The notes under the pieces were generated by a model that saw nothing but the letters and a program-made list of their open reading frames with translations, did not search any database and was not told the origin of the DNA. From positions 1 through 36,691 of the IMG/VR virus record IMGVR_UViG_3300045988_165663: a stretch of DNA of 36,691 nt. One strand, 5' to 3'. This DNA is from a virus. The position numbers were made by a program, and so were the translations under genes. Shown here piece after piece: positions 4,273-16,805 of this stretch (positions are counted from its first letter, which is position 1; the number at the start of each line of letters is the position of its first letter).

Positions 4273-5226
4273 ATGAGCTATCACATGTTTAATACACAAG
4301 TAGCCAAAAGATTGGGGATAGTGGAAGCAGTTTTGCTACACAATATCCAGTTTTGGATAGATAAAAATAGAGTGAATGAGAAGCACTTTTACAAGGGCAG
4401 ATATTGGACTTATAACTCTGCAAAGGCATTTTCAGAATTATTCGAGTATTTATCAGACAGACAAATAAGCAGGGCATTGAAGCAATTGGTAGATGATGGG
4501 TGGCTTATTAAAGACAATTTTAATACTAACCCATTTGACAGAACTAATTGGTATGCCTTAACCGATAAATACTACAACGAATTTATGAGTCAGAATGGAG
4601 TAGAGAATAGTTGCGAACCGATACACAAAACAAAGGACGCCGATTTGCCAAAAATGGTAAATGGTAAAACAAAAAGTGGCAATTCTTATATAGATACAGA
4701 TATTAAACCAGATATTAAAAGAGCAGATATAAACACAAATATAAACACAGATTCTCACGCGAAAACACAAAAAGACATAGCAGATTCTTTGTTTGGTTTT
4801 TTTGGTTTTGAAAGTGAAAATTCAGTTTCTGCCTCTAAAGCAAAAGAGAAACAAGACGACTTAGAAAGCTTAGAGAATGAATTTAATCAGATTTGGGAGA
4901 TATATCCAAAAAAGCAAGATAAACAAGCAGCGCTTAATAGCTATATAAAAGCCAGAAAGGGGTCAAAAATCGCTTTAAATAGTAGAGGTAATACCAAAGT
5001 AGCCTCTCAATCATTTGAAACGATTTTAAAGGGCGTTAGAAACTATTTAAGAGCTAATAGAGGAGTCGAGATTAAGTTTATTAAGCACTTAAGCACATTT
5101 CTTAATCAGCAGGCATATTTGGATTTTCAAGGTGAGGTTAATTTAAATCGGCGCGTTGGAGTTGTAGATAACCACGAGGACTATATAAACGCGGATAAGA
5201 GCATATATATCCCCAAACCTAAATAA
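4273..5226 (+). CDS. replication initiation / replisome-organiser protein (N-terminal wHTH, DnaD-like)
   Basis: wHTH N-domain, position immediately upstream of the DnaC-like loader, and internal iteron-like repeats at 4680..4760. Confidence 0.55.
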   Translation: MSYHMFNTQVAKRLGIVEAVLLHNIQFWIDKNRVNEKHFYKGRYWTYNSAKAFSELFEYLSDRQISRALKQLVDDGWLIKDNFNTNPFDRTNWYALTDKYYNEFMSQNGVENSCEPIHKTKDADLPKMVNGKTKSGNSYIDTDIKPDIKRADINTNINTDSHAKTQKDIADSLFGFFGFESENSVSASKAKEKQDDLESLENEFNQIWEIYPKKQDKQAALNSYIKARKGSKIALNSRGNTKVASQSFETILKGVRNYLRANRGVEIKFIKHLSTFLNQQAYLDFQGEVNLNRRVGVVDNHEDYINADKSIYIPKPK

Positions 5227-7530: not shown

Positions 7531-8319
7531 ATGGAAAAACTTAGTTTAACACAAGAGGATTACAGGGCTTATCCAGCATTAAGCACTAGCGATATTAAGC
7601 AAGTGCTAGATAATCCTTACAAGTTTAGAATCGGCTTTAAGACAGAGGAAACTCCAGCAATGAAGCTAGGTAGCTTGGTGCATACCCTTGTATTAGAGCC
7701 TTCAGAGTTTAATAAAACCTATGCAATAGCGCCCATCGCGGATAAACGCACAAAAGAGGGCAAATCAATATGGGCGGAGTTTTCAGAAGCAAATCAAGAC
7801 AAAATCATTATAGATTCTGCCATGTATGAAACCGCTAAAGGAATGCTACATAGCTTAAAAACAAGCGGGGTTTTTGAGAGATACTTTACACAAGGCGAGG
7901 CAGAGTCTAGCTACATAGGCGAGGCTTTAGGTGCAAAAATAAAGGTGCGTCCGGATTTCTTTAATCTTGAAAAAAACCTTATAGTGGATTTGAAATGCGT
8001 TAGTAATGCCAGTGCAAAGGGATTTCAAAGACTATGCGCTAACCTTAGATATTACATACAAGCCTATTTGTATATGAAAATCACGGGTGCTAAGCAGTTT
8101 ATCTTTGTGGCTATTGAAACCAAAGAACCTTACACAATAGGCATTTATGAGTTGGATTACATAGCCTTAGAATTAGCAGAAGCAGAGGTTAAAAAAGCCT
8201 TGCAGATAATAAGCGATATGGACGAGCTAGACAATATTATAAACGTGTATGGCTACCAGAGCATAGAGCCGGTTATGTTGGCACTCCCAAACTATGTTTT
8301 TTATGATAGCGAGGCATAA
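7531..8319 (+). CDS. PD-(D/E)XK family exonuclease (phage recombination exonuclease, YqaJ/Cas4-like fold)
   Basis: RPDFF...LIVDLKCV (D...D-x-K) motif plus a QAYLY segment. Located upstream of the annealase and SSB genes. Confidence 0.65.
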   Translation: MEKLSLTQEDYRAYPALSTSDIKQVLDNPYKFRIGFKTEETPAMKLGSLVHTLVLEPSEFNKTYAIAPIADKRTKEGKSIWAEFSEANQDKIIIDSAMYETAKGMLHSLKTSGVFERYFTQGEAESSYIGEALGAKIKVRPDFFNLEKNLIVDLKCVSNASAKGFQRLCANLRYYIQAYLYMKITGAKQFIFVAIETKEPYTIGIYELDYIALELAEAEVKKALQIISDMDELDNIINVYGYQSIEPVMLALPNYVFYDSEA

Positions 8320-8320
8320 C

Positions 8321-8881
8321 ATGGGAGGCGTGAAAAAGGTTAAGGGCTTTTGGGTAGATAAGAATAACAATTGCTGGGATTCTTTAATCTACACAAAAGA
8401 GGAAGCCTTAGAGTATTCTAAGAGCTTAGAAAATTGTAGAGATTGCGTTAATTGTATCAAGTGTAAAAATTGCATATCTTGTATAAATTGTGATAATTGT
8501 ATCAATTGCAAAGAGTGCAAAGACTGCACACATTGTGATATTTGTGAAAATTGCATCTTTTGTAAAGGTTGCAGAGAGTGTCAGGATTGCTATTCTTGCA
8601 AAAATTGTAAGGTTTGCAAATCTTGTAAGTATTGCGATGATTGCAGGGCTTGTATTGATTGTGAGGATTGTAAAGAGTGTGAAAAATGCTCAGCAAGTTA
8701 TCGTTGTGCATCTTGTAAATCTTGTATAGGTTGCTTTGATTGTAATTTTTGCGATGATTGTAGTCGTTGTAAAGATTGCGGATATTGTGTATATTGCAGT
8801 GGTTGTAAAACTTGTAGAAATTGTAAGTGGTGCAAGGATTATAAAGAGCGTTTTAATATCCACTTAAGAGCAGAATCATAA
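8321..8881 (+). CDS. cysteine-triplet repeat protein: about 44 consecutive X-X-Cys units after a 45-aa unique N-terminus
   Basis: Preferred start is ATG 8321, just after the upstream stop at 8317..8319. The translation reads NCRDCVNCIKCKNCISCINCDNCINCKECKDC... with Cys at every third residue over about 135 aa. The DNA shows a 9-nt periodic TGY signal across 8432..8836. Confidence 0.6.
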   Translation: MGGVKKVKGFWVDKNNNCWDSLIYTKEEALEYSKSLENCRDCVNCIKCKNCISCINCDNCINCKECKDCTHCDICENCIFCKGCRECQDCYSCKNCKVCKSCKYCDDCRACIDCEDCKECEKCSASYRCASCKSCIGCFDCNFCDDCSRCKDCGYCVYCSGCKTCRNCKWCKDYKERFNIHLRAES

Positions 8882-8999
8882 TTAGTTTGGTGCAGATTTA
8901 AGGCATCTGCAGGAAGCGTAAAGCTAGCCATCTCTTTATACCATCGGTATTCGAGCATTGGCATTATATCAAAATTTTTCTTGATTTCAACACAAATCG

Positions 9000-9062
9000 C
9001 AATTAAGTATTTTTTAAGAAATAATTACTTATAATTACACACATATAAATAAAGGAGCTTAT
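9000..9062 (+). promoter_or_regulatory. promoter/RBS cassette copy (TATAAT 9030..9035)
   Basis: AATTAAGTATTTTTTAAGAAATAATTACTTATAATTACAC...ATAAAGGAGCTTATATG. Confidence 0.45.
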
Positions 9063-9692
9063 ATGGAAAAAACAATCTACAAAAAGTTAATGGAAATACA
9101 GTCGAGTTTAAAGGCTAACAAAAGCCGTTTTAATAAGTTTGGGGGCTTTTCATACAGAAGCGCAGAGGATATTTTGGAAGCAGTGAAGCCCTTGCTAAAA
9201 CAAAATGGCTTAGTGCTTGTTTGTAGTGATAGTATAGACAATGGAATCCTAACCGCTACTTATAGCTTAATTGATGTGGATACCGGCGAATCGGTTACTA
9301 ATAGCGCAGTGGCTATTGTAGGCGAGCATAAAGGTATGAGTGCAGAGCAGAACACGGGGTGCGCTAGTAGCTATGCAAGGAAATACGCACTTAATGGCTT
9401 GTTTGCTATCGATGATAGCAGTGCAGACCCGGATTCTATGCCAGCAGAAAAAGAAGCTAAGCCTATGCCAGCAGAAAAATCTAAAGCAAAGAGCGAGCTA
9501 TTGGAAGCTAAAAAGCTACTAATGAAAGCCTTTAATGATGCCGGTGTAAAAAACAATAACGATATTAAGGAAATCTTGGAGTCAATCAAACTAGATACAA
9601 ACAATCCGGAAACAATAAAGGAATTTTTAAGTTTAAACCATAGAGAGATTATCCGAGAAAACATGAGAAAAATTGCAGAGAAGGTATTTTAA
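9063..9692 (+). CDS. single-strand annealing protein, Erf-like
   Basis: N-terminal KLMEIQSSL...FSYRSAEDILEAVKPLLKQNGL and central GCASSYARKYALNGLFAIDD resemble Erf-family SSAPs. Sits in an exonuclease-SSAP-SSB gene order. Confidence 0.55.
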   Translation: MEKTIYKKLMEIQSSLKANKSRFNKFGGFSYRSAEDILEAVKPLLKQNGLVLVCSDSIDNGILTATYSLIDVDTGESVTNSAVAIVGEHKGMSAEQNTGCASSYARKYALNGLFAIDDSSADPDSMPAEKEAKPMPAEKSKAKSELLEAKKLLMKAFNDAGVKNNNDIKEILESIKLDTNNPETIKEFLSLNHREIIRENMRKIAEKVF

Positions 9693-9694
9693 GT

Positions 9695-9701
9695 GGGGGG
9701 G
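9695..9701 (+). repeat. poly-G (G7) forming the RBS of ssb
   Basis: TAAgtGGGGGGGtgctaaATG read directly. Confidence 0.7.
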
Positions 9702-9707
9702 TGCTAA

Positions 9708-10169
9708 ATGCTTAATAATCTATCAATCTTAGGACGCGTTACAAAACCGCTAGAATTAAGGTATTTGCAGAATGGAACAGCGGTGCTAAATTTCGATATA
9801 GCAAACTCTCTCAAGGTAAAAGATAGCGAGCCAGTTGTTACATATCTTAGGTGCGTGTGCTATGGTAGAGGTGCAGAGGTTATTAATCAGTTTGTAGGAA
9901 AAGGGGATAGAGTGCTTTTGCAAGGGGAGTTAAGGCAAAATAGCTACAAAGACTCTACTGGTGCTACAAAGACTTATCACTACTTGCAAGTGAATAATTT
10001 TGACTTTATAGAATTTAAGAACAAAAAACAAACACAAAATCCAGAAGCAACACAACAAGCACAAGGTAAGCAAGGGGAGAGCATTATGGGATATGTTAAA
10101 GATGCCATGAAACCAAAAACCCAGAAAACAATAGACTTTGAAATATCAGACGATGATATACCATTTTAA
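9708..10169 (+). CDS. ssb: single-stranded DNA-binding protein
   Basis: OB-fold N-terminus (LSILGRVTKPLELRYLQNGTAVLNFDIA), Gln/Gly-rich linker and acidic C-terminal tail DDDIPF. Confidence 0.9.
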   Translation: MLNNLSILGRVTKPLELRYLQNGTAVLNFDIANSLKVKDSEPVVTYLRCVCYGRGAEVINQFVGKGDRVLLQGELRQNSYKDSTGATKTYHYLQVNNFDFIEFKNKKQTQNPEATQQAQGKQGESIMGYVKDAMKPKTQKTIDFEISDDDIPF

Positions 10170-11688: not shown

Positions 11689-12072
11689 TTGAGAGGTTTT
11701 AATAAGTTTAGAAACATAAAGATAAATAATGCCACTTTTGGCAAATTCGATTCTACATTGGAATACAACACTTTTTTGTATCTCCTAGCACTACAACAAC
11801 ACGGGAAAATATCAGAGTTAAAAAGACAAGTAGCAATCGATTTAACTCCGCTAAAGCAAAAGCATAAGGTTAAGTATGTATGCGATTTTCTCTATAAAGA
11901 CAAGGAACGCGGGTTAATTATTGCAGACGCTAAAGGTATGTTAAGGCCAGAGTATAGAGTTAAGAGAGAGTGGTTGTTATACCAGTTTAAGGGATTTGTT
12001 TTTATTGAATTCTACAAAGAGAAAATAAAAGAGTATCTGCCATCAGGGAGTATTGATATTTTTAGTAATTAA
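11689..12072 (+). CDS. DUF1064-like phage protein (predicted restriction-endonuclease-like fold)
   Basis: FDSTLEYNTFLYLLALQQHGKISELKRQVAIDLTP...VKYVCDFLYKDKERGLIIADAKG matches the pattern recalled for DUF1064 phage proteins. TTG start with GGGGG RBS. Confidence 0.5.
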   Translation: MRGFNKFRNIKINNATFGKFDSTLEYNTFLYLLALQQHGKISELKRQVAIDLTPLKQKHKVKYVCDFLYKDKERGLIIADAKGMLRPEYRVKREWLLYQFKGFVFIEFYKEKIKEYLPSGSIDIFSN

Positions 12073-12130
12073 GTATTATTTAAGAATAAATAGTTATAAT
12101 TACAGCGTAAATTTAAATAAAGGAGCTAGA
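12068..12130 (+). promoter_or_regulatory. promoter/RBS cassette, near-consensus copy (TATAAT 12095..12100)
   Basis: TAATTAAGTATTATTTAAGAATAAATAGTTATAATTACAGCG...ATAAAGGAGCTAGAATG. Confidence 0.55.
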
Positions 12131-12874
12131 ATGAAAAGAGAGATAGAATATATCTATGGGGATAAAGACAATAATATACTAAGACAACGCGTTTCTAAGT
12201 TAGGCAATATAAGACACGGGCTTACGATATGTTATTACAATGCGAGAACCCCTTGCAATATAAGACACGGGCTTACGATATGTTATTACAATGTGAGAAC
12301 CCCTTATCGCAAGATTCTTTATAAGTTTGGCAAGAGGGTTGCAGAATTATTCTTGTTTGAGAATAGCAAAGGCGATATTGTAAAGTCTAAGACAAACTCT
12401 TTTTCTGAATTAGTCAAAGAGGGCAGAAAAACCATATTAAAGGAATGGCAAGCAACAAAAAGAGGGGTGTTTTTAAAATCTGAAGCAGAAATAAAGAATG
12501 GTGTTTTGCATGGCAAAAAAGTCGTTTATGATTCTGATGGCTGGGTTAGTCAAATTATGCAATATAGAGATGGTAAGCTTGAGGGCGCGTCTTATTCTTA
12601 CAACAAAGATGCTGATATTGTAACCGAGATAAATTATAAAAATGATGTTAGACACGGCGAGGCTTTTCTTGTTGGAAGCTCCATGTTTGGCGAGGGCGCG
12701 CTTACAAAAGGTGTGCGAGTTTTAAGCGATAAATCCACTAGTAATAAAGAGTTTGTAGCACTATATGAAAATGGCAATGTAATCGAGTTATATTTCTCTA
12801 GGTTTGGCATAAAAATAGCAAAGGTGCATGAGAATATGATTAGTGAAATCATATTGCACGGGGATTTACCATAA
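12131..12874 (+). CDS. MORN-repeat-containing protein, paralogue 4, with an in-frame 51-bp tandem duplication near the N-terminus
   Basis: Start chosen at ATG 12131 (RBS AAGGAG) rather than the track's 12053. C-terminal KNGVLHGKKVVYDSDGWVSQIMQYRDGKLEGASYSYNKDADIVTEINYKNDVRHGEAF MORN units. Duplication NIRHGLTICYYNARTPC / NIRHGLTICYYNVRTPY. Confidence 0.6.
   Translation: MKREIEYIYGDKDNNILRQRVSKLGNIRHGLTICYYNARTPCNIRHGLTICYYNVRTPYRKILYKFGKRVAELFLFENSKGDIVKSKTNSFSELVKEGRKTILKEWQATKRGVFLKSEAEIKNGVLHGKKVVYDSDGWVSQIMQYRDGKLEGASYSYNKDADIVTEINYKNDVRHGEAFLVGSSMFGEGALTKGVRVLSDKSTSNKEFVALYENGNVIELYFSRFGIKIAKVHENMISEIILHGDLP
12206..12307 (+). repeat. 51-bp direct tandem duplication (2 copies, 2 mismatches) inside the CDS
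   Basis: AATATAAGACACGGGCTTACGATATGTTATTACAATG(C/T)GAGAACCCCTT(GC/AT) at 12206..12256 and 12257..12307. Confidence 0.85.
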
Positions 12875-12882
12875 GGGGGGGG
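12875..12882 (+). repeat. poly-G (G8) between the stop at 12872..12874 and ATG 12885
   Basis: ccaTAAGGGGGGGGttATG read directly. Confidence 0.8.
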
Positions 12883-12884
12883 TT

Positions 12885-13058
12885 ATGACATTGTATGTTA
12901 CCTATAAAGACGGCAGGCATTCTTATATTGAAACGAAAAATATGGTAGATATTAAAGATTCTAAAGGGGATAAATACGTTGTCTTGAGTGAAAAAGAGTA
13001 TAAAAAGTTGCTTGCAGAGATTGAGTATTTAAAGAAAAATCCAGTTTTATTTAATTAA
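12885..13058 (+). CDS. small hypothetical protein (57 aa)
   Basis: ATG 12885 lies right after the G8 tract. The ORF-track version (12843..) is extended upstream only through the G tract. Confidence 0.4.
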   Translation: MTLYVTYKDGRHSYIETKNMVDIKDSKGDKYVVLSEKEYKKLLAEIEYLKKNPVLFN

Positions 13059-13113
13059 GTAAAGATTAAGTAATAAATAAATATAATTATACAAATTAAA
13101 TAAAGGAGCTAGA
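13053..13113 (+). promoter_or_regulatory. promoter/RBS cassette copy (TATAAT 13082..13087)
   Basis: TAATTAAGTAAAGATTAAGTAATAAATAAATATAATTATACA...ATAAAGGAGCTAGAGTG. Confidence 0.45.
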
Positions 13114-13410
13114 GTGCAAGAGGTTAAGGAAGCATTAAAGAATATCTTTATGGGTATAGCGCTAGGCATTGTGATGGCAGGATTCGTGTTATCCATTATT
13201 GAAGGACGGCTATTGCTGGCATCGAGAGAGAATTACGGCTTAATATCTTTTTATATATTTGTGCTAATTACTACATTGTCAATTTTTGTTTATCTCTTTA
13301 AAGATGGGATAAACAACACTACTTTAGCAATAGGCATTCTAAGCGCAATTGGGTTTGTAATAAGCGAGATTCTTATATCCCTTGACTTAGTGCTAGCTTT
13401 TTCATTTTAA
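13114..13410 (+). CDS. membrane protein, 3 TM (holin / superinfection-exclusion candidate)
   Basis: GTG start. Hydrophobic helices GIALGIVMAGFVLSII, LISFYIFVLITTLSIFVYLF and LAIGILSAIGFVISEILI. Confidence 0.5.
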   Translation: MQEVKEALKNIFMGIALGIVMAGFVLSIIEGRLLLASRENYGLISFYIFVLITTLSIFVYLFKDGINNTTLAIGILSAIGFVISEILISLDLVLAFSF

Positions 13411-13418
13411 GGGGTGCA

Positions 13419-13619
13419 GTGATGGCAATGTTTGTATGGTTTTTAGTGCTAACAAGTGCCAGCATTTATGCGCTTTTTGGAGTTGCTATCGAAGCAGGGA
13501 AAGAATCTTGCTTTAAGGTTAAGTGGTATTGGTGGCTAATTGTAGGAGGGCTATGTATGCTCTTTTTATGCTTGGATATTTATTTGCTATATAAGACTTT
13601 TAATGCTTTAAGGGCCTAA
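13419..13619 (+). CDS. membrane protein, 2 TM
   Basis: FVWFLVLTSASIYALFGVAI and WWLIVGGLCMLFLCLDIYLL. Confidence 0.45.
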   Translation: MMAMFVWFLVLTSASIYALFGVAIEAGKESCFKVKWYWWLIVGGLCMLFLCLDIYLLYKTFNALRA

Positions 13620-13622
13620 AGA

Positions 13623-14909
13623 ATGAGTGTAGGAAAGCAATTAAGCTTATTTGACTTTATCGAAAACCCTTTTGGTGTGATAGATACTAATCAAACCACT
13701 AACACAGATTCTATTAAAAACCTTAATGCTTGCATCCCTTACAAAGGAAGCAAGAGAAAGATTAGCCACTTGATACTACAAGAGCTAAGAAACCATGCTC
13801 CACAAGCGAAATATTTTTATGATATGTTTGGCGGTGGTGGTGCAATGGCTTTAAACGCGCATTTTAACGGATACAAGACTCACTACAATGAGCTAGATAT
13901 AGACGTGTATGTGTATATGAAGTTTCTAATATCCCGGCTACAAAATAAAAAAGGTAAATATGGGATTTTGCCTGATGAGTGGTATAGGTTTATTACAAAG
14001 GCAGAATTTGACAAGATTAAGGCAGACAAAACGCCGAGCGCATATAGAAGCTTTGTTTTGCTTAATTACAGCTTTGCTAATGATTGGAATACCTACTTTT
14101 GCAATAAAGAAAAAGAGCTATTCAAACAAAAAGGGCATTATCTATTGCTAGACAACGACAAAGAGTGCGCAGAGTGGTGGGATAATCACTTTAAAGAGAA
14201 TGGAAGCGTAGCAGGCATATATAATCATTTGCATAGTGAGATATATCCTAGCCTTAACTGGAGAGAGCGGAGAGCTTATTTTGTGAATATAACCCTTAAG
14301 ATAGAAGCAATAAGAGTTGCAGGGATAGCGTATTTATTTCAAAAGAAAAGCAACGCGGATACATACAAGGCAGTTAAGGATATATCACAAAAAGACTTAT
14401 GCAGGCTTATAGATAAACATAATCCGGATTTACCTAAGAAAAACTACAAAGGAACACAAGGCAAAGGATTAACCGAGCTTAAGCAATTACAGCGATTAGA
14501 GCAATTACAGCAATTACAGCAATTACAGCAATTACAGCAATTACAGCAATTAGAGCGATTACAGCAATTAGAGCGATTAGAGCTAATCACACACACGAAT
14601 CTGGATTATGCAGAAGTAAAAATAAGCACTCCTCCACAAGACACAATCATATATGCAGACCCGCCTTATTCAAATACTAGCGAGTATAAATTGTGTGGAA
14701 ATAGCTTTGATTATGAGCGATTCTACCAGTGGTGTATAGACAAGGCAAAGCAAGGGTATTATGTTTTTATAAGCGAATATAATATGCCACAAGATAGGTT
14801 TAAAGAGGTATGGAGTAAGGATACTTTAGCAAATTTTAACACTATCAAAAAAGATTGTGGTGCAAGAGTAAGACCACAAAGAGTCGAGCGTCTTTTTATG
14901 GTGCGTTAG
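13623..14909 (+). CDS. DNA N6-adenine methyltransferase, Dam/D12 class (orphan), with an internal (QLQ)n repeat linker
   Basis: N-terminal motif IPYKGSKRK and a C-terminal DPPY motif (IIYADPPYSNTSEY). Between them lies LKQLQRLEQLQQLQQLQQLQQLQQLERLQQLERLEL, encoded by 9-bp tandem repeats. Confidence 0.85.
   Translation: MSVGKQLSLFDFIENPFGVIDTNQTTNTDSIKNLNACIPYKGSKRKISHLILQELRNHAPQAKYFYDMFGGGGAMALNAHFNGYKTHYNELDIDVYVYMKFLISRLQNKKGKYGILPDEWYRFITKAEFDKIKADKTPSAYRSFVLLNYSFANDWNTYFCNKEKELFKQKGHYLLLDNDKECAEWWDNHFKENGSVAGIYNHLHSEIYPSLNWRERRAYFVNITLKIEAIRVAGIAYLFQKKSNADTYKAVKDISQKDLCRLIDKHNPDLPKKNYKGTQGKGLTELKQLQRLEQLQQLQQLQQLQQLQQLERLQQLERLELITHTNLDYAEVKISTPPQDTIIYADPPYSNTSEYKLCGNSFDYERFYQWCIDKAKQGYYVFISEYNMPQDRFKEVWSKDTLANFNTIKKDCGARVRPQRVERLFMVR
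14483..14584 (+). repeat. 9-bp tandem repeat (CAATTACAG / CGATTAGAG), about 11 units, in frame within the methyltransferase gene
   Basis: Read directly: cagcaattacagcaattacagcaattacag... Confidence 0.85.
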
Positions 14910-14956: not shown

Positions 14957-15532
14957 ATGGCTAAGCCTTTAAATAAGAATATGGAAACAATAGCTACTAA
15001 ATACCAAACGGGGCAGTATGGGATTAATGAGTTAGCTAGAATGTATAAGGTAGATAAATCCACTATAAGCCGTTATATAAAGAGGCATAATATAACAATA
15101 AATCAACACGCAAAAGATGCTATAAGCCACTTAACACAGGGGCTTAATGAGTTTAACGAAATTTGCAATGGCAACACTTTGAGTCAACAGAGTCAACACT
15201 TAAGCGTTTCAGAGATAGAGAATGCACATAAGAACTCGGTTAATCTAGCTAATGAAGTTATAGAGATTGTTAGAGAAAAGAATCCGCAATTTGCTAAAGG
15301 CTTTCAAGCAATAAGTAGCCTTATATTAAAGAGAAGTGCAGAGTTATTACAAAAAGACGGGGTTACAAGCACGGATATAGCTAACATAAGTAAGGCTATG
15401 GGTAATGTAAATGATACGCTAGGCGTTATCCCTAAATTACCAACAATCGCACAGCAGATTAACATTAATGGTAAAGGTGCAGAAGCAAACAAGCAGGATA
15501 AGAGGATAGATTTAGATATTAAGTTCGTTTGA
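14957..15532 (+). CDS. terminase small subunit (HTH DNA-binding)
   Basis: HTH GINELARMYKVDKSTISRYIKRHN. Immediately upstream of, and nearly abutting, the large terminase. Confidence 0.6.
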   Translation: MAKPLNKNMETIATKYQTGQYGINELARMYKVDKSTISRYIKRHNITINQHAKDAISHLTQGLNEFNEICNGNTLSQQSQHLSVSEIENAHKNSVNLANEVIEIVREKNPQFAKGFQAISSLILKRSAELLQKDGVTSTDIANISKAMGNVNDTLGVIPKLPTIAQQININGKGAEANKQDKRIDLDIKFV

Positions 15533-15533
15533 T

Positions 15534-16805
15534 ATGGAAATAAGCATACCTAAAAAATTTAAGCCCTTATTCGAGGGTGCTTATGATAAATATCGCGTTA
15601 TTGTATATTATGGTGGTCGTGGTGCCGGAAAGAGTGTTACATTAAGCTATTTTGCTATTCTTAAATGCTTGCAGGATAGAATCAGATTCTATATTGTGAG
15701 AAAGGTAGAAAAAAGCAAAGCAAATAGTATCCATAGCCTTATAAAAAGACTATTAAGAGAATCTAACCTATTTGATTATGTAAAAAGCACAAGTATAGAT
15801 AAGATAACCTTTATAAATGGAAGCGAGCTTTTGTTTGATGGTGTAAGCGAGCGTACAATAGACAACATAAGAAGCGCGGATAATATTCGTTATTTCTGGT
15901 TTGAGGAGGCACACGGTTTAAAAGATGATTTGATGCAAGTGCTAATCCCAAGTGTAAGAGCGGATAATAGTCAAGTAATAGTAAGCCTTAATCCACAAAA
16001 AAGCACGGATTACATTTACACGCAGTATATAAAAAGCGAGAATATAGACAATAGCTACAGCATAGCTATTAAGGTTAATTATAACGATAATCCATTTTTA
16101 CCGGAGGTTTTGGATAGAGATAGGCTAAGGGATTTGAAAATGCTACCCCGTGAAGTATATTTACATATATGGGAGGGTGAAACTAACGACTACAACGACT
16201 TAAAGGTGATTAATACAGAGCTAATAGGCTACTTTGACAATAATAAAACCTTTGACTATCGCTACCTAGTGCTTAGCATAGACACGGCTACAAGTGTTAA
16301 GAGCGGCGCGGATTATAGTGCTATAGGTGTATTTGGCTTGCTAGATAGCAAAGAGGTGCATTTGGTGCATATGAACCGAGGGCATTACGATTTTCACACT
16401 CTTTTAAGTGAAATAAAAAATACTTATGAAATAACCAAAGAGCTAACAAAGAGAACGCCTAACCTAATCCTCTTAGAATCCAAAGCAAACGGGTTAAGCG
16501 TTATGCAGGAATTGCAGAGAACCACTAACCTAAGAGTAAAGGGCTTTAATCCAATGAGCGATAAATTAAGCCGCGTCGTTAATGATTTTCTACCCTTTAT
16601 CGATAAGCTTAAGCTACCCATGCAACAAAACATTTACAATTTCTGGATTAATGATTACCTAAGCGAGTGCAAAGGCTTTAGAGCAGACAACAAGCACGAA
16701 CACGACGATATGATAGATTCTACTTCACAAGCACTAGCCTTTTTGTGTAGAAAAACCTTTAACTATGAAAACATAAAAGAAGCATTCTCTGGTCTTAAAA
16801 ATTAG
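15534..16805 (+). CDS. terminase large subunit
   Basis: Walker A VIVYYGGRGAGKS. C-terminal nuclease region with conserved acidic residues. Correct size and position. Confidence 0.9.
   Translation: MEISIPKKFKPLFEGAYDKYRVIVYYGGRGAGKSVTLSYFAILKCLQDRIRFYIVRKVEKSKANSIHSLIKRLLRESNLFDYVKSTSIDKITFINGSELLFDGVSERTIDNIRSADNIRYFWFEEAHGLKDDLMQVLIPSVRADNSQVIVSLNPQKSTDYIYTQYIKSENIDNSYSIAIKVNYNDNPFLPEVLDRDRLRDLKMLPREVYLHIWEGETNDYNDLKVINTELIGYFDNNKTFDYRYLVLSIDTATSVKSGADYSAIGVFGLLDSKEVHLVHMNRGHYDFHTLLSEIKNTYEITKELTKRTPNLILLESKANGLSVMQELQRTTNLRVKGFNPMSDKLSRVVNDFLPFIDKLKLPMQQNIYNFWINDYLSECKGFRADNKHEHDDMIDSTSQALAFLCRKTFNYENIKEAFSGLKN

Follow-up and report, generated by a model that had tools for sequence, protein, structure and literature searches.

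We analysed a 36,691-nucleotide stretch of viral DNA (IMG/VR record IMGVR_UViG_3300045988_165663, positions 1 to 36,691; hereafter the window) and found that its methyltransferase gene (13623-14909, plus strand) contains a coding minisatellite. The array consists of 11 nine-nucleotide units placed head to tail, and it encodes a tract with a leucine at every third residue between motifs I/II and the catalytic motif IV of a D12-class DNA methyltransferase. It is conserved at the same position throughout a subfamily of such enzymes, its copy number varies by whole units, and the encoded tract is predicted to be alpha-helical. We interpret the tract as a helical arm that is maintained by selection while its exact length is tolerated, and that most likely provides a surface for protein-protein contacts or for stabilising the hinge between the recognition and catalytic parts of the enzyme. 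To this interpretation we assign a probability of roughly 0.6. The existence of the arm, its conservation, its mode of evolution and its helical nature are well supported, whereas its role is conjectural.

The repeat array and the methyltransferase that carries it

Tandem Repeats Finder located the repeat at 14482-14583 of the window, with a period of 9, 11.3 copies, 89% matches and a score of 155. The degenerate unit CRATTASAG matches 11 times head to tail at 14484-14582 and twice more in the remaining 36.6 kb; shuffled sequences contained it 1.47 times on average and five times at most, so that none of 100 shuffles reached 13 occurrences. Direct-repeat analysis yielded a single family with a spacing of exactly 9, and the repeat search detected no inverted repeat at the array. 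The units, of the form C[A/G]A TTA [C/G]AG, are in frame with the 428-residue open reading frame (ORF) of the methyltransferase and encode (Q/R)-L-(Q/E). Residues 288-320 read QLQ, RLE, five times QLQ, QLE, RLQ, QLE and RLE, which is exactly the peptide that an earlier note on this DNA, made from the sequence alone, had given for a tandem 9-bp repeat. The periodicity of one leucine in three residues extends beyond the array proper and spans L283 to I323. The ORF list also contains a minus-strand frame of 50 residues with CCN/CSN repeats at 14444-14596; we rejected it as a gene because it is the reverse complement of the array and a by-product of the repeat.

The same unit is common to the window and five relatives, and in all of them only nucleotides 2 (Gln or Arg) and 7 (Gln or Glu) vary. 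These two positions generate four unit types, the order of which is shuffled between phages. Pooled over the window and the five relatives, leucine in the array is encoded by TTA in 72 of 73 cases and arginine by CGA in 25 of 26; in the flanks, the shares of TTA and CGA are roughly 30-40% and 0-10%, respectively. Glutamine at the third position of the unit is encoded by CAG, and TTA, CGA and CAG are all minority choices in the flanks, where 16-27% of the conserved residues differ in codon among the same relatives.

Sequence profiles and predicted fold assign the ORF product to the alpha-group D12-class DNA methyltransferases. It matched Pfam family PF02086 in two stretches with 39.8 bits (cut-off 22, E=5.5e-10) and the PHROG family phrog_56, annotated as DNA methyltransferase, with E=2.5e-28. 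An AlphaFold2 (AF2) model of the protein had a mean predicted local distance difference test score (pLDDT) of 80, and Foldseek matched it with a probability of 1.00 to M.CbeI, EcoDam, T4 Dam and DpnM. The template modelling scores on the target reached only 0.4-0.56, which we attribute to the extra domain and the arm of the window protein. By sequence profile, T4 Dam is the closest solved relative (E=5e-8). The model for Dam proper, the GATC equivalog TIGR00571, scored 28.8 bits, far under its cut-off of 114.85, with a match confined to residues 36-85, and an identity as Dam equivalog was therefore rejected. Of the label Dam-class in the earlier note, membership of the D12 class is thus upheld by Pfam and fold, but Dam in the strict sense is not.

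The conserved elements follow the alpha order, with motif I N-terminal, the recognition domain in between and the motif IV DPPY C-terminal. IPYKGSKRK in the motif-X region of D12 enzymes (residues 38-46, 13734-13760) pairs with IAYTGNKQ of T4 Dam, and its residues Y40, G42 and K44 are invariant in an alignment of 50 sequences. Motif I, DMFGGGGA (residues 67-74, binding of S-adenosylmethionine), and motif II, YNELD (residues 88-92), span 13815-13898 and belong to strands beta1 and beta2, modelled by AF2 at 64-67 and 85-89; F65, D67, G71, Y88 and N89 are invariant in the same alignment. The position of the target-recognition domain is occupied by an all-helical insert (residues 93-266, 13899-14420) with pLDDT values mostly above 90. 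It is about twice the size of the recognition domains of solved D12 enzymes such as T4 Dam or EcoDam, and the solved relatives are merely 244-259 residues long. There follow a Lys/Gly-rich loop, NPDLPKKNYKGTQGKG, and the residues LTELK (residues 267-287, 14421-14483), as delimited by alignments and the AF2 model. PKKNYK is kept across the family (consensus PxxPKKNYK in two alignments), pLDDT is below 50 for residues 274-290, and the loop may correspond to the DNA-contact loop of the Dam enzymes.

Downstream of the array, the end of the tract and strand beta3 (LELITHTNLDYAEV, motif III region) lead to motif IV, IIYADPPY, at 14583-14669, with DPPY itself at residues 346-349 (14658-14669). AF2 places strands at 323-325 and 341-345, and motifs I and IV are invariant in 50 homologues. 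In the profile alignment, EQLEKITLTNLDYKEVKI...DPPY is paired with residues 145-184 of T4 Dam, QNCDKIIFSSLHFKDVKI...DPPY. IPYKGSKRK and DPPY are present as the earlier note had quoted them; its description of the gene as split holds insofar as motifs I/II and motif IV are on opposite sides of the array, but the ORF is continuous.

T4 Dam, EcoDam and DpnM are alpha-group N6-adenine methyltransferases, and M.CbeI is an alpha-class N4-cytosine methyltransferase. All four share with the window enzyme the Pfam family and the motif order X, I, II, recognition domain, III and IV, and T4 Dam is likewise a solitary phage enzyme. They lack the repeat, however, and have a helix of ~12 residues before beta3 where the window protein has at least 33 repeat residues. 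Because M.CbeI shows that a DPPY enzyme of the same fold can be an N4-cytosine methylase (PMC8616854), DPPY alone is no proof of adenine specificity. To the nearest members with methylome data, which are distant relatives, N6-methyladenine at CCAG and CYAG was assigned (PMC4190342).

Conservation and copy number of the array

A word-based homologue search returned 1898 matches, the close ones of which were 80-91% identical and 378-481 residues long; the differences in length are mostly multiples of 3, and the tract is present in all of them. Because this search was skewed towards QLQQL words, it was redone without the repeat. phmmer with the repeat-free residues 1-283 against 1.84 billion representatives yielded 401 matches, and the 150 best of these formed the basis of an array census, in which 76 representatives were full-length, contained DPPY and had less than 50% mutual identity. 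At least six consecutive [LIVMF]xx units were present in 64 of the 76, ending about 18-25 residues before DPPY. In these representatives the first position of the unit is occupied by L (74%), I (13%), V (6%) or F (5%), the second by E (33%), Q (29%) or K (8%), and the third by Q (28%) or R (24%), followed by N, H and S. Relatives with as little as ~30% identity have the array in the same place, which makes it an ancestral hallmark of the whole subfamily and not, as the earlier note had it, an insertion in a single gene.

The subfamily is large (hundreds of 50%-identity clusters) and mostly encoded by phages and prophages. Members from cultured phages include that of Lau218, with 13 units, and methylases of Lactococcus Skunavirus phages. 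A 240-residue homologue from an Enterococcus phage is array-free, its common region being the C-terminal half only. Like this homologue, the D12 enzymes T4 Dam, EcoDam and DpnM outside the subfamily have only a short helix at the array position.

Codon usage in ~45 distant loci (~30% identity, GC content 24-46%) revealed that each array uses essentially a single leucine codon, which is TTA, TTG, CTG, CTT, CTA or CTC depending on the lineage. The product is L-[Q/E]-[Q/R] in every case, and the only nucleotides to vary are the first of the second codon and the second of the third. We read this pattern as concerted evolution, in which slippage or unequal exchange would homogenise the units and purifying selection at the protein level would conserve the motif. 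That the only two sites to escape homogenisation are those that determine charge argues for selection of a mixture of Q, E and R.

Copy number ranges from about 4 to 31 across the family, and all 170 distinct arrays that we examined are in frame. Close relatives alone contribute 51 different arrays, with 6-31 units. In the full set of sequences, the number of units is unimodal with a mode of 8-11 and has no parity or phase preference, and arrays of fewer than five units are very few. Where two sequences are 99.7% identical in their flanks, their arrays are 5-14 units apart; the difference between two of the alleles, P0043 and P0053, resembles a single internal deletion. The 30-unit allele P0028 was identical in 11 contigs from at least two samples and two assemblers. 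The array has 6-20 units in finished genomes of cultured Lactococcus phages, and phages LP0109 and LP9406, of the same dairy host strain and with 98.6% identical flanks, have 6 and 8 units, respectively. Length variation as such is not an artefact, since it occurs in these cultured phages and the array of the window is only ~100 nucleotides long. The comparison across isolates suggested in the earlier note thus reveals variable copy numbers, and its statement that such changes preserve the frame and alter the length of a linker, not the ON state of the gene, agrees with ~4-30 units that are all in frame. The assembly artefact that it named as a possible refutation is contradicted by the arrays in finished genomes of cultured phages.

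The lactococcal enzymes M.Phi15I, M.Phi93II and M.Phi145II, from 936-type Skunavirus phages, belong to the same subfamily by N-terminal homology. They are orphan phage enzymes of the alpha group, as is the window enzyme, and have an L-[Q/E]-[Q/R] array of 6-20 units at the same position. They differ from the window protein in sequence (~34% identity, in the N-terminal part only), in length (290-337 residues), in their location in the replication module and in the use of CTT for leucine. The array comprises 9 units in M.Phi15I and 20 in M.Phi93II, and the flanks of the two are 88% identical. Sequencing of single molecules in real time (SMRT) by Murphy et al. (2014) led to a tentative attribution of CC(6mA)G to M.Phi15I and of CY(6mA)G to M.Phi93II; the repeat is not mentioned in that paper, and it demonstrated protection from restriction not for M.Phi15I, M.Phi93II or M.Phi145II but for other methyltransferases from the Skunavirus phages in question (PMC4190342).

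Literature searches with peptide strings, leucine zipper, coiled-coil and 9-bp repeats in combination with methyltransferases located no account of the array. Papers on repeated Asn residues in a methyltransferase of Erwinia and on a (TA)n tract in the dcm8/dam3 fusion of Metamycoplasma hominis were set aside as unrelated. The repeat module and its mode of evolution are apparently undescribed in the literature searched, while the enzyme is a member of a known family. The exact protein of the window is not on record; scans of IMG/VR and GTDB genomes gave distant relatives only (at most 37% identity) and no host genome, and a nucleotide search of GenBank phages gave an 80-nucleotide match only.

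Some loci contain two tracts, each consisting of an array and DPPY, approximately 1 kb apart. They were seen in L008 (3490-3552 and 4411-4473) and L029 (685-765 and 1810-1863), and also in L046 and L058 (Levilactobacillus prophage; 4439-4555 and 5523-5567 of L058). Each tract of a pair has its own L-[Q/E]-[Q/R] array, and the lengths of the two are unlike. The pairs resemble methyltransferase genes in tandem, or perhaps one fused gene, and raise the question of whether the arms pair.

Predicted structure and possible role of the tract

AF2 modelled, with low confidence, a helix at residues 284-312 of the window protein. In the relative with 30 units, helices were predicted at 283-291, 296-311 and 317-365, with pLDDT values of 84-88 over residues 320-350 and with helix breaks at Gly-containing units. 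Leu, Glu, Gln and Arg are strong helix formers. Pairs of Glu in one unit and Arg in the next, that is, at i and i+4, are enriched relative to within-array shuffles (z=3.0), as are Glu-Arg pairs within the same unit (z=4.6), and the net charge of the arrays averages -0.4. The residue composition, the AF2 helix and the i,i+4 enrichment led us to set aside, as less likely primary models, the beta-solenoid, polyproline-II and 3-10 conformations that a period of exactly 3 had brought to mind. Gly per unit is four times denser in arrays of at least 19 units; it is present in 80% of these and in 7-21% of arrays of at most 14 units (Spearman 0.32, p=2e-5, phylogeny ignored).

The C-terminal end of the tract is aligned with the residues of T4 Dam that immediately precede beta3 (QNCDKIIFSS), which argues that the (Leu-[Gln/Glu]-[Gln/Arg])n array lengthens the alpha-helix running from the target-recognition domain into beta3 of the Rossmann fold. 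In the AF2 model, the array separates strands beta1 and beta2, on its N-terminal side, from beta3-beta7, on its C-terminal side, and all of them are part of one sheet. Because both ends of the tract would thus be anchored close to each other in a single globular enzyme, extra units are expected to loop out and project as a helical arm. Long arrays would fold back at their Gly-containing units and probably form a hairpin, a geometry that we derive from secondary structure and pLDDT alone.

The spacing of the hydrophobic residues, one at every third position throughout, is 3-3-3 and not the 3-4 of a heptad. At 100 degrees per residue in an alpha-helix, the line of leucines turns by 60 degrees per unit and spirals round the helix. 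A leucine zipper or canonical coiled coil was rejected for this reason, and dimerisation through a leucine stripe, as considered in the earlier note, loses its basis.

We favour a model in which the array is a coding minisatellite that has become a conserved module of a D12 methyltransferase subfamily. Replication slippage or unequal recombination would add or remove whole 9-nucleotide units, keep the frame and homogenise the units, and selection at the protein level would preserve leucine at every third residue together with a mixture of Q/E and Q/R in which charges are roughly balanced. Changes in copy number would alter the length of the arm and not the ON/OFF state of the gene nor, judging from the lactococcal relatives, the recognised motif. 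The surface of the arm would most likely serve self-association or partner binding, or stabilise the hinge. The enzyme itself would most likely methylate a short sequence on the phage DNA, which would then escape host restriction. Orphan phage methyltransferases are a main route of phage restriction escape and are now used as tools, and by analogy with other solitary phage methyltransferases (PMC4190342) an anti-restriction role of the window enzyme is plausible.

Several observations weigh against this model. The pLDDT over the array of the window protein is only 42-54. No canonical coiled coil matches a leucine at every third residue, and antiparallel Glu/Arg complementarity, of the kind that a self-pairing hairpin or an antiparallel dimer would have, gave no signal (z at most 1.5), which leaves self-association conjectural. 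D12 enzymes without an array work (T4 Dam, EcoDam, DpnM and the 240-residue Enterococcus phage homologue), so that catalysis does not require the arm. A neutral tract, too, would be expected to vary extremely in length among near-identical proteins, and some of the metagenomic arrays are longer than the reads or k-mers and may have been assembled wrongly. The arrays of LP9406 and LP1407, the names of which suggest the years 1994 and 2014, are identical despite 2.6% divergence of the flanks, and short arrays can therefore be stable. Finally, the attribution of lactococcal motifs to genes is tentative in the source paper (PMC4190342).

Alternatively, the array could be tolerated junk, that is, slippage-prone DNA in a permissive, solvent-exposed helix before beta3, with units that are neutral. 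A smooth, unimodal spread from ~4 to 31 units that lacks parity or phase preference is what such a tract would be expected to show, as are 99.7% identical flanks around arrays up to 14 units apart and the low AF2 confidence over the array; the activity of array-free T4 Dam and EcoDam and the existence of an array-free phage homologue point in the same direction. A neutral tract should, however, decay or vanish, yet at least six units are kept in 64 of 76 representatives that share less than 50% identity, and L-[Q/E]-[Q/R] persists through complete codon turnover. The two dimorphic sites that escape homogenisation need selection for a mixture of Q, E and R, the Glu-Arg pairs are enriched both within the unit and at i,i+4 with a net charge near 0, and arrays below five units are very few. 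Neutrality would explain the variation in length but not this conservation, and we consider it unlikely.

A more ambitious version of the helical-arm model is tentative at best. Here the array would be an unrecognised, rapidly evolving functional module of Type II methyltransferases in which the length of the arm and its Glu/Arg pattern, equivalent to two "bits" per unit, set self-association or the binding of a partner; selection would maintain the array, and slippage would supply a pool of variants without inactivating the enzyme. Candidates for such a partner would be a tandem array-bearing methyltransferase, a protein of packaging or replication, or a sensor of the host from which the phage has to escape.

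A molecular ruler in the manner of Type I specificity subunits, in which paired helices would set the spacing of a bipartite target or the specificity through their length, is improbable. Its precedent is the change from EcoR124I (GAAN6RTCG) to EcoR124II (N7), which have two and three copies, respectively, of a 12-bp TAEL repeat in the helical connector of HsdS as a result of unequal crossing-over (PMC3874165). The TAEL repeat and the window array are alike in being in-frame repeats in a helical connector of a methylation specificity component. The array moreover lies at the junction of the recognition and catalytic domains, and some loci have two tandem array-bearing methyltransferase genes. 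The TAEL unit, however, has four residues, occurs in 2-3 copies and forms a 4-3 coiled coil that joins two recognition domains and changes the target spacer, whereas the window family has 4-30 copies of a three-residue unit with 3-3-3 leucine spacing, a single recognition domain per chain in the AF2 model, and no antiparallel charge complementarity. From 4 to 30 units, the helix would grow from about 18 to 135 Å, far beyond a plausible series of spacers. That lactococcal members with 9 and 20 units were assigned near-identical and contiguous 4-bp motifs, CCAG and CYAG (PMC4190342), argues against a spacing ruler and a change of target, albeit indirectly, from the methylomes of relatives. The tuning of domain spacing that the earlier note had suggested is called into question by the same two motifs, and it is geometrically awkward in a protein with one Rossmann sheet.

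Still less probable is an element that acts at the DNA level, be it a packaging, regulatory or protein-binding site near the terminase gene or a recombination hotspot. The array is located ~375 nucleotides upstream of the terminase-region genes, and its units are homogenised as DNA, synonymous sites included. Between lineages, however, the unit differs as DNA but keeps its amino-acid pattern, and inverted repeats are absent. The position in the protein is constant across genomic contexts, namely the replication module in Skunavirus, a site beside thymidylate synthase in Lau218 and the one before the terminase in the window. As a source of the two variable nucleotides, a diversity-generating retroelement or other targeted mutagenesis was also considered, but the C/G and A/G changes are unlike adenine-directed mutagenesis; no search aimed at a reverse transcriptase or a template repeat was made, and the family scans covered roughly 0-16.8 kb and one ORF near the 3' end.

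An assembly artefact or an ON/OFF phase-variation tract can be practically dismissed: tandem repeats are indeed a weak point of short-read assemblers, and simple repeats make many methyltransferase genes phase-variable (PMC7383803), but the 99-102 nucleotides of the window array fit within one short read, the same feature recurs in hundreds of independent sequences that include finished genomes of cultured phages, and a unit of 9 nucleotides excludes switching, with every allele (170 of 170 distinct arrays) in frame. The Type III mod and Type I hsdS/hsdM genes of phasevarions likewise have slippage-prone repeats inside a methyltransferase gene; their units are not multiples of three and cause ON/OFF switching or truncation, whereas the 9-nucleotide unit of the window never shifts the frame.

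The protein is thus an ordinary enzyme with an unusual, conserved and unexplained module, a coding minisatellite at the recognition/catalytic hinge of a subfamily that includes enzymes of the well-studied dairy Skunavirus phages. Its evolution is unusual in that codons are homogenised within lineages and replaced between them, with the same two dimorphic sites kept in each unit. If the helical arm is functional, it would add a new kind of variable module to the Type II methyltransferases and be a natural example of frame-safe length variation, and its (Leu-x-x)n helix would belong to a poorly understood structural class. If it is merely tolerated, it would be a clean model of the joint shaping of protein repeats by slippage and purifying selection. 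In practice, the array confounds the clustering and the short-read assembly of such genes, and it could be used as a strain marker.

Genomic setting of the methyltransferase gene

The window looks like a complete phage genome (~36.7 kb) with all genes on one strand. Pfam and PHROG family scans covered roughly 0-16.8 kb and one ORF near the 3' end. Genes for replication initiation and a helicase loader are followed by those for an exonuclease, an Erf protein and a single-stranded-DNA-binding protein (SSB), and then by those for a holin, a spanin-like protein, a DUF1064 protein, a few unknown ORFs and the methyltransferase. On the 3' side of the latter lie genes for a helix-turn-helix (HTH) protein, the large terminase and the portal. 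The HTH protein (14957-15532, plus strand) is in the position of a small terminase and matches Pfam HTH_38 with E=1.4e-5, a match of 25.1 bits that falls under the gathering score of 27. The large terminase (15534-16805, plus strand) is identified by Terminase_3, Terminase_6N and Terminase_6C and by the PHROG large terminase subunit. The order of methyltransferase, HTH and terminase genes is the same in the relatives L061, L063 and L068.

Scans of the early and lysis regions detected no restriction endonuclease partner, several small neighbours being unannotated, and the early region contains replication and recombination genes only. The view that no cognate endonuclease is nearby, already expressed in the earlier note, is supported by these scans, and the gene content suggests that the methyltransferase is solitary in the phage; one of the unannotated small neighbours might still be a novel nuclease.

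The large terminase is closest, with 38-39% identity, to those of the Campylobacter phages PC22, PC11 and DA10 and of a Helicobacter prophage. Close relatives of the methyltransferase are located on contigs of 33-38 kb, which come from pig-gut metagenomes where the source is recorded. The kinship of the terminase and the pig-gut source of these relatives point to a probable host among the Campylobacterota of the pig gut. The GC content of the window is 34-39%, and no integrase was seen among the ORFs scanned.

The recombination module (7531-10169) comprises the exonuclease (7531-8319), the Erf-type annealing protein (9063-9692) and SSB (9708-10169). One might speculate that such a module could promote the rearrangement of short tandem repeats, the array among them.

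The surroundings of the D12 gene differ between relatives. L060 (4369-6010) and L061 (1326-2970) have a ParB_N-like gene together with a gene for a C5 cytosine methyltransferase (PF00145), and one of the two has this pair immediately downstream of the D12 gene, the other immediately upstream. In the window, unrelated small ORFs that are unknown or encode membrane proteins precede the D12 gene (12053-13620). Because of these differing neighbours, the stretch from DUF1064 to the terminase can be regarded as a variable cassette. In L064 (4447-5715), which carries the 30-unit allele P0028, the large terminase gene directly follows that of the methyltransferase, without the 191-residue HTH protein.

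Two observations concern the methyltransferase itself. A PDB search with the single sequence matched the repeat to a SAM-domain protein (E=0.038), a match that was discarded as spurious and due to low complexity, and a PDB search with the Lau218 homologue found nothing. The N-terminal ~27 residues (13623-13700) are predicted to be disordered (pLDDT below 50) and many relatives match only from about residue 25 (94% coverage); the true start codon may lie downstream of 13623.

Two other genes of the window contain repeats. An ORF at 12053/12128-12874 (plus strand) has a 51-bp tandem duplication at 12204-12305 (2.0 copies, 98% identical) that encodes NIRHGLTICYYNARTP twice; the rest of this ORF has a weak MORN-variant match, and it gave no PHROG match. 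The second is an ORF of 195 residues at 8294-8881 (plus strand) with Cys at every third residue ~40 times (CxxCxxC...), which matches phrog_15341, of unknown function, with E=1.5e-35 and gave no Pfam family match. The repeat logic that the earlier note saw as shared between this gene and the methyltransferase is superficial, as the DNA repeat of the Cys-triplet gene is degenerate (66-80% matches) and not a homogenised minisatellite.

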